Virus record (IMG/VR): IMGVR_UViG_2582580752_000004 | Origin: a virus | Taxonomy: Duplodnaviria; Heunggongvirae; Uroviricota; Caudoviricetes | Length of the DNA: 45,585 nucleotides | Direction: 5' to 3' (one strand) | In this document: positions 20,541-21,320 of the stretch, in pieces | Layout: each line of letters starts with the position of its first letter | How positions within the stretch are numbered: position 1 is the stretch's first letter | Translations under genes and position numbers: made by a program | The notes under the pieces: generated by a model | What the model saw: the letters and a program-made list of their open reading frames with translations, nothing else | Databases searched by the model: none | Told to the model about the DNA's origin: nothing

Positions 20541-21005
20541 TGTTTTGTTATGAAGGTGTTACTGGTAACGTTAAGGTAATTTAACAAAGAGTCAGTTCCG
20601 GACTTTATAGTGTGCTCAGTTCATGGCCAAAAACGATTTCTGTGATAAATATTTTGAATATTATTTACAGGTAAATGGAGTGGGGCACATGGATAGAAAT
20701 ATTACAATAGAGAATGAAGTATATGCCCGTATTGTATGGGCAGAGAAGGCAAAAACACGGTAATTCCGTGTGTTGCCATGATACCTGATTGGCAGAATAG
20801 TTGTTTGGTTTTGAGTATATAGTCAGCGTTTTTTGTTCAGTAATTGCTCCCTCAAAAAATAATAAAATAAGGTGATTATTTTTGTTTATTATTTAGTTTT
20901 TTTTGTGTGTTGTTTTATTGTTTTTGCGTGGTTTGTTTTTTATTGTTATTTCATTAAGGGAAGGTAAATTCAGGATGGCAGTCTGTAGATAATCGGAGGT
21001 CACTT

Positions 21006-21320
21006 ATGCTACATGATCACGTGGCAGAATGTCTGGAGAAAAAAGGACTGTACCGGAGAGCAGCTGAACGATGGGCAAAAGTGATGGTACAGCTAAGTGA
21101 TGACCAGAAAAGAAAAGTGGCGGCACAGAAACGAGCAGAGTGTTTGCGTAAGGCGCGCCGGACTCCGGTTTCACCGGTGAACCTGACCGAAATAAAACAA
21201 GCGGTCAACAGACTACATTCTGAGTTGGGAATGGGATTTGAAGAGCGGCGGGTATTCCGACGATATAAAGGGACAGGAGAACAGAATACGTCCGGAAACG
21301 CGCGGTCAAAAAAATGCTAA
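21006..21320 (+). CDS. PerC-family (Pch-like) transcriptional activator
   Basis: 104 aa; N-terminal LEKKGLYRRAAERWAKVM pattern resembles PerC/Pch proteins from memory. Confidence 0.55.
   Translation: MLHDHVAECLEKKGLYRRAAERWAKVMVQLSDDQKRKVAAQKRAECLRKARRTPVSPVNLTEIKQAVNRLHSELGMGFEERRVFRRYKGTGEQNTSGNARSKKC

Follow-up and report, generated by a model that had tools for sequence, protein, structure and literature searches.

We analysed a 45,585-nucleotide stretch of viral DNA (IMG/VR record IMGVR_UViG_2582580752_000004; hereafter the window), focusing on positions 20541-21320, where an open reading frame (ORF) of 104 codons follows a T-rich non-coding tract. The locus is very probably a group-1 pch gene of the pchA allele, carried as a moron by a lambdoid prophage that resembles Sp4 and Sp14 of Escherichia coli O157:H7 Sakai and that also carries a TccP-like effector gene. 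An initial annotation, made from the sequence alone, had called the product a PerC-family-like protein and a Pch-type regulator of the enterocyte effacement locus (LEE). Both the gene call and the reading as a virulence regulator are correct, and are already textbook knowledge for enterohaemorrhagic E. coli (EHEC). The T-rich module upstream of the gene, hypervariable in sequence but conserved in composition, may play a part in regulating the pch paralogues differently. The coordinates of all features are collected in Table 1.

Identity of the pch gene

The product of the ORF matched the Pfam PerC family (PF06069) with an E value of 3.8e-44 and a score of 149.3 bits, compared with a cutoff of 22.6. 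The alignment was full-length, with residues 1-89 placed on model positions 1-89 of 90. In addition, BLASTP aligned the product with PerC of enteropathogenic E. coli (EPEC; plasmid pMAR7) at 47% identity over 87 amino acids (residues 2-88; E 1e-27). Alignment to PerC and Pch had been named beforehand as the check on the family assignment, and these two matches confirm it.

Identity extends to the level of the allele. All 104 residues are identical to those of PchA of E. coli O157:H7 Sakai (ECs_1091, in prophage Sp4), and the nucleotide sequence of window 20441-21483 differs from the Sakai pchA locus by only two substitutions in about 1,040 nt, both in the non-coding flanks. The coding sequences (CDSs) of pchA, pchB and pchC in Sakai are each 315 nt long and are distinguished solely at nucleotides 16, 172 and 183 (PMC5931665). 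The window has the pchA base at all three diagnostic positions, and shows no further differences from pchB and pchC in the CDS. At the protein level, PchB (ECs_2182, Sp11) is one residue apart (V6L) and PchC (ECs_2737, Sp14) two residues (V6L, V58M). The T-rich module of the window is also of the pchA type, while the upstream region, the Shine-Dalgarno sequence, the terminator and the location after Rz are shared with all three Sakai genes. RefSeq names the identical protein (WP_001303878.1) 'PerC family transcriptional regulator', and UniRef uses 'PchABC family transcriptional regulator'. The ORF is best named pchA-type Pch (PerC family), not hypothetical.

PerC of EPEC belongs to the same Pfam family as Pch, and it too is an activator of the LEE1 (ler) promoter (PMC4764244, PMC4456613). 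It differs from Pch in several respects. PerC has 89 amino acids, is borne on a plasmid (the EPEC adherence factor plasmid pMAR7) and is encoded third in perABC, behind the AraC-type PerA. Unlike pch, perC lacks a T-rich upstream module of its own. Furthermore, PerC is dispensable for LEE expression in EPEC under many conditions (PMC4764244). In contrast, Pch is prophage-borne, monocistronic, present in multiple copies and required in EHEC.

A search for relatives of Pch among the solved structures in the PDB gave no match at E values up to 1. The protein shows no sequence similarity to H-NS-like DNA-binding domains; its family is PerC, not Ler/H-NS. Residues 7-47 matched the NCBIfam family of AraC negative regulators (ANR; NF033650) at E 0.046 and 13.6 bits, compared with a cutoff of 32. 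Since equally weak matches to unrelated families were obtained, this match is probably compositional. ANR proteins also interact with H-NS.

The pch cassette as a moron between Rz and cos

Comparison with relatives that lack pch bears out the view that the gene is a virulence-regulating moron, as it shows an insertion between Rz and cos. Position 20541 is the first base past the Rz stop codon. In the lambdoid phage PhiR12_1, which shares the lysis and terminase genes of the window but lacks pch, BLAST homology with the window extends to 20522 and begins again from 21782; only 333 nt take the place of the 1,259 nt of the window. In a Stx1 phage without pch, homology extends to 20530 and is found again at 21492-21626. 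Homology with phage lambda covers 20136-20518 of Rz and an end junction at 21479-21877 (88% identity), and thus resumes 354 nt before cosN; lambda has bor and two small ORFs in between. These breakpoints delimit a pch cassette from about 20541 to about 21478. The cassette comprises about 940 bp, with a GC content of 38.9% compared with 52.4% for the window. Hence, it has the extra DNA, the distinct base composition and the terminator of its own that are typical of a moron, whereas for the remaining hallmark, a promoter of its own, only weak consensus candidates were seen.

The terminator is a GC-cored hairpin flanked by A and T runs, located between the convergent pch and DUF3950 genes. Its predicted folding energy is -15.1 kcal/mol on the plus strand (z -2.7) and -12.3 kcal/mol on the minus strand (z -2.6). 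The DUF3950 ORF is chimeric and spans the right junction of the cassette: homology with lambda and the Stx1 phage is limited to the part from 21479 and 21492, respectively, to 21626. Its N-terminal 45-49 codons are common to the Stx1 phage, and its C-terminal part lies on the side of the pch cassette.

The gene order lysozyme, Rz/Rz1, pch, DUF3950, cosN, Nu1, TerL is the same in Sakai Sp11, Sakai Sp14 and E. coli O26 11368, and in Sp11 and Sp14, too, an intact DUF3950 gene, cos and Nu1 come after the pch cassette. The backbone of Sp4 is different from that of the window: homology of Sp4 with the window ends at 21484, near an annotated copy of IS629, and in Sp4 pchA and the lysis genes are on the opposite strand to the head and tail genes. 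The gene had been described as lying just upstream of cos. This is roughly right, but 512 nt, including the terminator and the DUF3950 gene, separate the pch stop codon from cosN.

The cassette occupies the same slot as the bor region of lambda, which lies between Rz and cos and is the classical site for morons. The two have in common a cargo that serves host fitness or virulence, a foreign base composition and a terminator of their own. They differ in that bor is an antisense-oriented lipoprotein gene, whereas pch encodes a regulator and is oriented in the sense of the late operon. Because of this orientation pch, unlike bor, could also be expressed by late read-through.

Composition and allelic variation of the T-rich module

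Rz and pch are separated by a spacer of 465 nt, which is 38.5% T, has a GC content of 33% (about the 2nd percentile) and is not low-complexity throughout. The initial annotation had described a T-rich low-complexity tract of 460 bp; this agrees with the length of the spacer, but the extreme core covers only about 85-125 nt, so the size of the tract was overstated about four-fold. The most T-rich stretch had been placed correctly, at about 20880-20960. Its core (20869-20953, 85 nt) consists of 66% T and 2.4% C, with 21% GC and 79% AT, and is the lowest-GC area of the window. Only 0.026% of all 85-nt segments in the 45.6 kb are as T-rich as this core, and the highest value (68% T) belongs to the segment that begins at 20871.

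We compared the window with the alleles Sakai pchA, pchB and pchC, and with those of O157:H16, O80:H26 and strain 2013C-4974. Divergence from the window was 0-3 of 315 nt in the coding sequence, 1-4% in the left spacer (20541-20829) and 0-5% in the proximal 43 nt (20963-21005). The T-rich segment (20830-20962) differed by 9% in the pchC type and by 31% in the pchB type, versus 0.3% in the coding sequence. No other part of the aligned locus diverges as much as this module, which nevertheless kept a T content of 64-67% and a length of 84-85 nt across the alleles. Between the A-type and the B-type module, 11% of the T sites had changed compared with 48% of the non-T sites (Fisher p 2e-6). A conserved proximal block (20936-21005) was kept across the alleles.

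A run of eight T residues (20897-20904) is a run of seven in Sakai pchB and pchC and in the O157:H16 and 2013C-4974 alleles. A more distant homologue, a perC-like gene on plasmid pDEC5B-4 (O55:H7) with 79% amino acid identity to Pch, is preceded by a tract with 54% T, and its nucleotide homology with the window starts at 20978. This plasmid gene (1529-1843) adjoins EspG-domain gene fragments and remnants of insertion sequence (IS) elements.

Transcription of pch and the possible role of the T-rich module

Transcription of pchA is responsive to butyrate via Lrp, to LrhA and to LeuO (PMC4456613, PMC7279287), as well as to NtrC and sigma-S (PMC10714755). Its expression has been reported in uninduced EHEC (PMC4456613, PMC10714755), while SOS induction raises the transcripts of the group-1 genes pchB and pchC (PMC5931665).

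Judged from the sequence, we somewhat favour a model with a proximal promoter. In a lysogen, pch would be transcribed from a promoter of its own in the conserved proximal block, which contains a candidate sigma-70 promoter with a predicted start at about 20977. The T-rich module would then extend from -30 to about -110 and could act as an AT-rich regulatory platform, at which nucleoid proteins (H-NS) and the known pchA regulators Lrp with butyrate, LrhA, LeuO and ppGpp/DksA would set the level of pch expression. Allelic differences in the module would account for the distinct regulation of pchA, pchB and pchC. Upon induction of the prophage, Q-antiterminated late transcripts through Rz could read into pch, which is possible because the gene is in sense orientation. 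The increase in pchB and pchC transcripts during the SOS response is consistent with such read-through from the late operon.

Silencing of the tract by H-NS is plausible, given the AT content of the core and the type of the known pchA regulators (Lrp, LeuO, LrhA). With its AT content over 85 nt, the core falls within the range of H-NS-silenced or intrinsically curved promoter DNA (more than about 70% AT over at least 80 bp). The reading as H-NS-silenced DNA in the initial annotation fared less well at the level of motifs, as extreme AT content alone was in its favour: sites resembling the high-affinity 10-mer (tCGATAAATT-like), with at most two mismatches, were absent from 20830-20962, and the 36 matches in the whole window compare with 35 expected by chance. 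The consensus of integration host factor (IHF) was not enriched and occurred at chance level. Among the accessible papers and supplements, we found no report of H-NS occupancy at pch.

Several observations weigh against the proximal-promoter model and the regulatory role that it assigns to the module. The proximal candidate has only 8 of 12 consensus matches, which is below the threshold of 9 of 12 in our promoter scan, and the homologue from E. albertii does not share its -10 element. The position of the module relative to +1 is therefore a prediction. The H-NS motif, the IHF consensus and the helical phasing of T residues (see below) are all at chance level. The conservation of T sites may partly be an artefact, since alignment of low-complexity DNA favours T-T matches. 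Finally, two IS elements in the late region upstream (15.3-18.1 kb) could blunt read-through.

Another possibility, clearly less probable than the proximal promoter, is that the module is transcribed as a U-rich 5' leader, for example as a landing pad for S1 or Hfq or as a translational enhancer. In this case, pch mRNA would start near 20581-20611 or 20773-20801, or would result from read-through of the late operon. Promoter-like sites are present at both positions, with 10 of 12 matches (and a long spacer) and 9 of 12 matches, respectively, but promoter-like sites were no more frequent in our promoter scan (two found) than in shuffled sequences (3.2 expected). The orientation of pch after Rz and the response of group-1 pch transcripts to SOS induction (PMC5931665) would fit a long transcript, and the strong asymmetry of the sense strand (66% T) would suit a role at the RNA level. 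Reviews also mention a 'leader region' and a '5' untranslated region' of pchA, although the published cis-regulation is confined to the ribosome-binding site (RBS) and the coding sequence. Predicted RNA structure in the T-rich tract was not significant (z -0.9 and -0.6). Moreover, conservation resumes from 20936, just before the proximal promoter, which fits a constraint on a core promoter with a short untranslated region.

A more tentative and rather less probable reading is that the module is a regulatory element whose sequence can change as long as its composition and length are kept, such that only the T runs and the overall length are under selection. It may, for example, serve as a platform of the H-NS or UP-like kind, or as a leader rich in U. 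If this were true, the bases between the T runs could vary or be exchanged by recombination, the distinct A-, B- and C-type modules would wire otherwise identical pch genes to different signals, and the polymorphic T8/T7 run could serve as a tuning knob based on slippage.

It is unlikely that the module is a functionless, low-complexity spacer prone to slippage, or a recombination scar, whose T-richness is kept by AT-biased mutation. Such a spacer would explain why the module diverges far more than the rest of the cassette, why the homopolymer run varies between T8 and T7, and why the tandem-repeat signal is marginal and no signal of motifs, phasing or structure was obtained. However, length and T content have been kept despite up to 31-39% divergence between alleles, whereas by our arithmetic 33 unbiased substitutions would lower the T content to about 45%. 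The changes avoid T sites, and the distant plasmid homologue has a T-rich upstream tract too. Furthermore, the flanking non-coding DNA is only 1-4% divergent, so that uniform neutral drift cannot yield a local divergence of 31%.

The tract had also been described as curved DNA, which our tests did not confirm. It is improbable that it consists of intrinsically curved, helically phased A/T tracts whose bending drives the promoter or nucleates H-NS. Fourier power of the T positions at periods of 10, 10.5 and 11 nt was at the level of dinucleotide shuffles (p 0.29-0.77), and none of the 12 strongest predicted bends of the window is located in the spacer or the T-rich tract, the nearest being at 21316, at the 3' end of pch. 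A wedge model did give a curvature of 22-28 degrees per 30 bp at 20840-20930, which ranks at about the 95th-99th percentile within the window, and T residues were weakly periodic at 18-21 nt (p 0.04-0.08, uncorrected). Tandem Repeats Finder (TRF) likewise detected a degenerate repeat with a period of 21-25 nt at 20875-20944, but its score (59-60) was reached by 3.7% of the dinucleotide shuffles. A similar repeat of about 21 nt was seen in pchB, while none with a 21-nt period was detected in pchC. Hence, we rejected the tandem repeat as marginal.

Predicted control of translation by the coding sequence and DicF

Passages in reviews of Melson & Kendall 2019 state that the coding sequence masks the RBS of pchA, and that binding of DicF unmasks it under low oxygen (PMC7769764, PMC7873438, PMC9438474). 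In silico folding of the window reproduces both the published masking of the RBS and the site targeted by DicF. Five transcript lengths were folded, and in four of them 20995-21006 is paired with 21094-21105 at minimum energy; in the shortest one (20978-21120), the initiation region pairs with 21115-21119 instead. The DicF sequence was located by Rfam in Sakai Sp4. Its nucleotides 1-25 are complementary to 21085-21110, with a duplex energy of -28.1 kcal/mol, and a perfect DicF seed (ACCAGAA) is present at 21103-21109. We used this local 25-nt duplex, as energies of the whole-length DicF duplex are inflated (shuffles average -38 kcal/mol).

According to these folds, pairing of the RBS region with 21094-21105 would mask translation initiation, and the prophage-encoded small RNA (sRNA) DicF, by binding at 21085-21110, would free the RBS under low oxygen. 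A point against this pairing is that another partner of the RBS, at about 21143-21175, reaches -20 kcal/mol and beats 21094-21105 when the duplexes are considered in isolation.

Function of Pch

The function proposed for the product, regulation of the LEE, is supported by published activation of ler::lacZ by the identical protein. In E. coli MG1655 delta-yfdN, PchA raises expression of ler::lacZ from 1,577 to 9,087 Miller units, and PchA, PchB and PchC all activate this fusion in K-12 (PMC5931665). Hence, the alignment and the ler-reporter assay that had been proposed as tests have known positive answers. Pch activates LEE1 through lowered binding of H-NS at the promoter; it acts only under silencing by H-NS, StpA, Hha and YdgT, and leaves an hns stpA mutant unaffected (PMC4764244). 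In relieving this repression, Pch resembles Ler and other H-NS counter-silencers (PMC4764244). According to the literature on the identical protein, binding of PchA to the promoter region of LEE1 (ler) lowers the occupancy by H-NS and StpA, which de-represses ler and thereby the type III secretion island. The effects of several pch copies are additive.

PerC-family membership by itself is no guarantee of LEE activation, as PchD and PchE have a minimal effect on ler (PMC5931665, PMC6265319), but the idea that the ORF is an inactive or diverged paralogue of this kind is effectively refuted by its complete identity to PchA over the full 104 amino acids, its intact start codon, Shine-Dalgarno sequence and terminator, and its distance of only one and two residues from PchB and PchC, which activate ler as PchA does.

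The gene thus marks the prophage as one of the Pch-carrying lambdoid type, which control LEE type III secretion in EHEC and atypical EPEC. The copy number and allele type of pch influence adherence and virulence.

Table 1. Features of the pch locus and its surroundings. Positions refer to the window; aa, amino acids.
Feature	Position	Strand	Remarks
pch CDS, pchA allele	21006-21320	+	ATG start, 104 aa, PerC family
Shine-Dalgarno sequence GGAGG	20995-20999	+	6 nt before ATG
RBS-pairing and DicF-complementary stretch in CDS	21085-21110	+	anti-Shine-Dalgarno core 21094-21105
T-rich module	20830-20962	+	core 20869-20953
Left spacer	20541-20829	+	ordinary AT-rich DNA, 36% GC; 1.4-3.8% divergence among pch alleles
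Candidate sigma-70 promoter	20943-20970	+	TTGTTA (20943-48)-N16-TAAATT (20965-70); 8/12 consensus matches, predicted start ~20977
Promoter-like site	20773-20801	+	TTGCCA-N17-AATAGT; 9/12
Weak promoter candidate	20581-20611	+	TTAACA (20581-86)-N19-TATAGT (20606-11); 10/12, long spacer
Bidirectional intrinsic terminator	21357-21383	both	AAAAAGCGAC, 7-nt loop, GTCGCTTTTT; perfect 10-nt inverted repeat
Rz spanin gene, left backbone neighbour	20073-20540	+	Pfam Phage_lysis, E 6e-49
Rz1 ORF embedded in Rz	20293-20478	+	from the ORF list
YlcI/YnfO (DUF3950) small gene	21402-21626	-	Pfam DUF3950, E 1.3e-17; NCBIfam NF041551
cosN, 12-nt cohesive end	21833-21844	+	GGGCGGCGACCT; identical to that of lambda
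Doubtful 46-codon ORF	20623-20763	+	open in all alleles; full-length match to phrog_2157
EspF-repeat ORF, TccP/EspFU-like type III effector	44692-45585	-	runs off right end; five repeats, Pfam PF04806, E 2e-143
IS3-family element	15563-15679; 15605-16495		ALIL frameshift pseudoknot; rve ORF
IS110-family transposase	16825-18069	-	
AraC-family regulator gene	11348-12061		directly upstream of the tRNA trio
tRNA trio	12090-12341		anticodons CAT, TCG, TCT

Other candidates in the spacer

A 46-codon ORF in the left spacer is doubtful as a gene. Seven of its nine substitutions in the pchC allele are nonsynonymous, and no gene is listed there in the RefSeq annotations examined, including that of the identical stretch of E. 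coli O26:H11 11368. Its tblastn match was in just one phage fragment, which itself bears the same cassette. A 31-amino-acid ORF in the T tract (20872-20967) was rejected as spurious; it is broken in pchB and pchC.

Searches for RNA elements with Rfam gave no match at E values up to 1 in 19000-23000, and none in 20541-21320 at the gathering thresholds. An attenuator at the T8 run is not credible, as the hairpin before the run is composed entirely of A and U and reaches only -6.5 kcal/mol. We also rejected a candidate sRNA on the minus strand, with a promoter-like sequence at 20888-20859 and a hairpin at 20771-20755: the U run lies inside the stem (z -1.9), and allele substitutions at 20758 and 20768 break the pairing on that strand. 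In total, four terminator-like sites were found, compared with 1.6 +/- 1.2 in shuffled sequences, which is not clearly above expectation.

Distribution and prophage context

Of 5,426 complete E. coli genomes, 671 contain the cassette (20541-21400, 860 bp, at least 90% identity), and the median copy number is three. The carriers listed all belong to EHEC or atypical-EPEC serotypes, such as O157:H7, O145:H28, O26:H11, O111, O121 and O55:H7. Among 50,697 phage records, the cassette occurred in only two short fragments, so sequenced phage isolates seem to include no representatives of the Pch-carrying prophages. Fifteen or sixteen copies were located on records labelled as plasmids (e.g. CP061244.1, NZ_CP010239.1 and NZ_CP157167.1), one of which is 1.41 Mb long. 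These records may be mislabelled chromosomal pieces or phage-plasmids.

The window represents a lambdoid prophage from the repressor region to the tail fibres, and the nearest complete genomes match positions 12000-36000 at 99.5% identity. As in the window, pch is paired with tccP in both Sp4 and Sp14 of Sakai. The AraC-family gene and the tRNA trio of the window have the same arrangement as ECs_1087 with ileZ-argN-argO in Sp4. Both IS elements (about 15300-18100) lie between a sialate-esterase-like gene (13421-15256) and the lysozyme gene (19050), and this pair may impair late transcription and the viability of the prophage. Finally, hok/sok and STnc100 are also present in the window.

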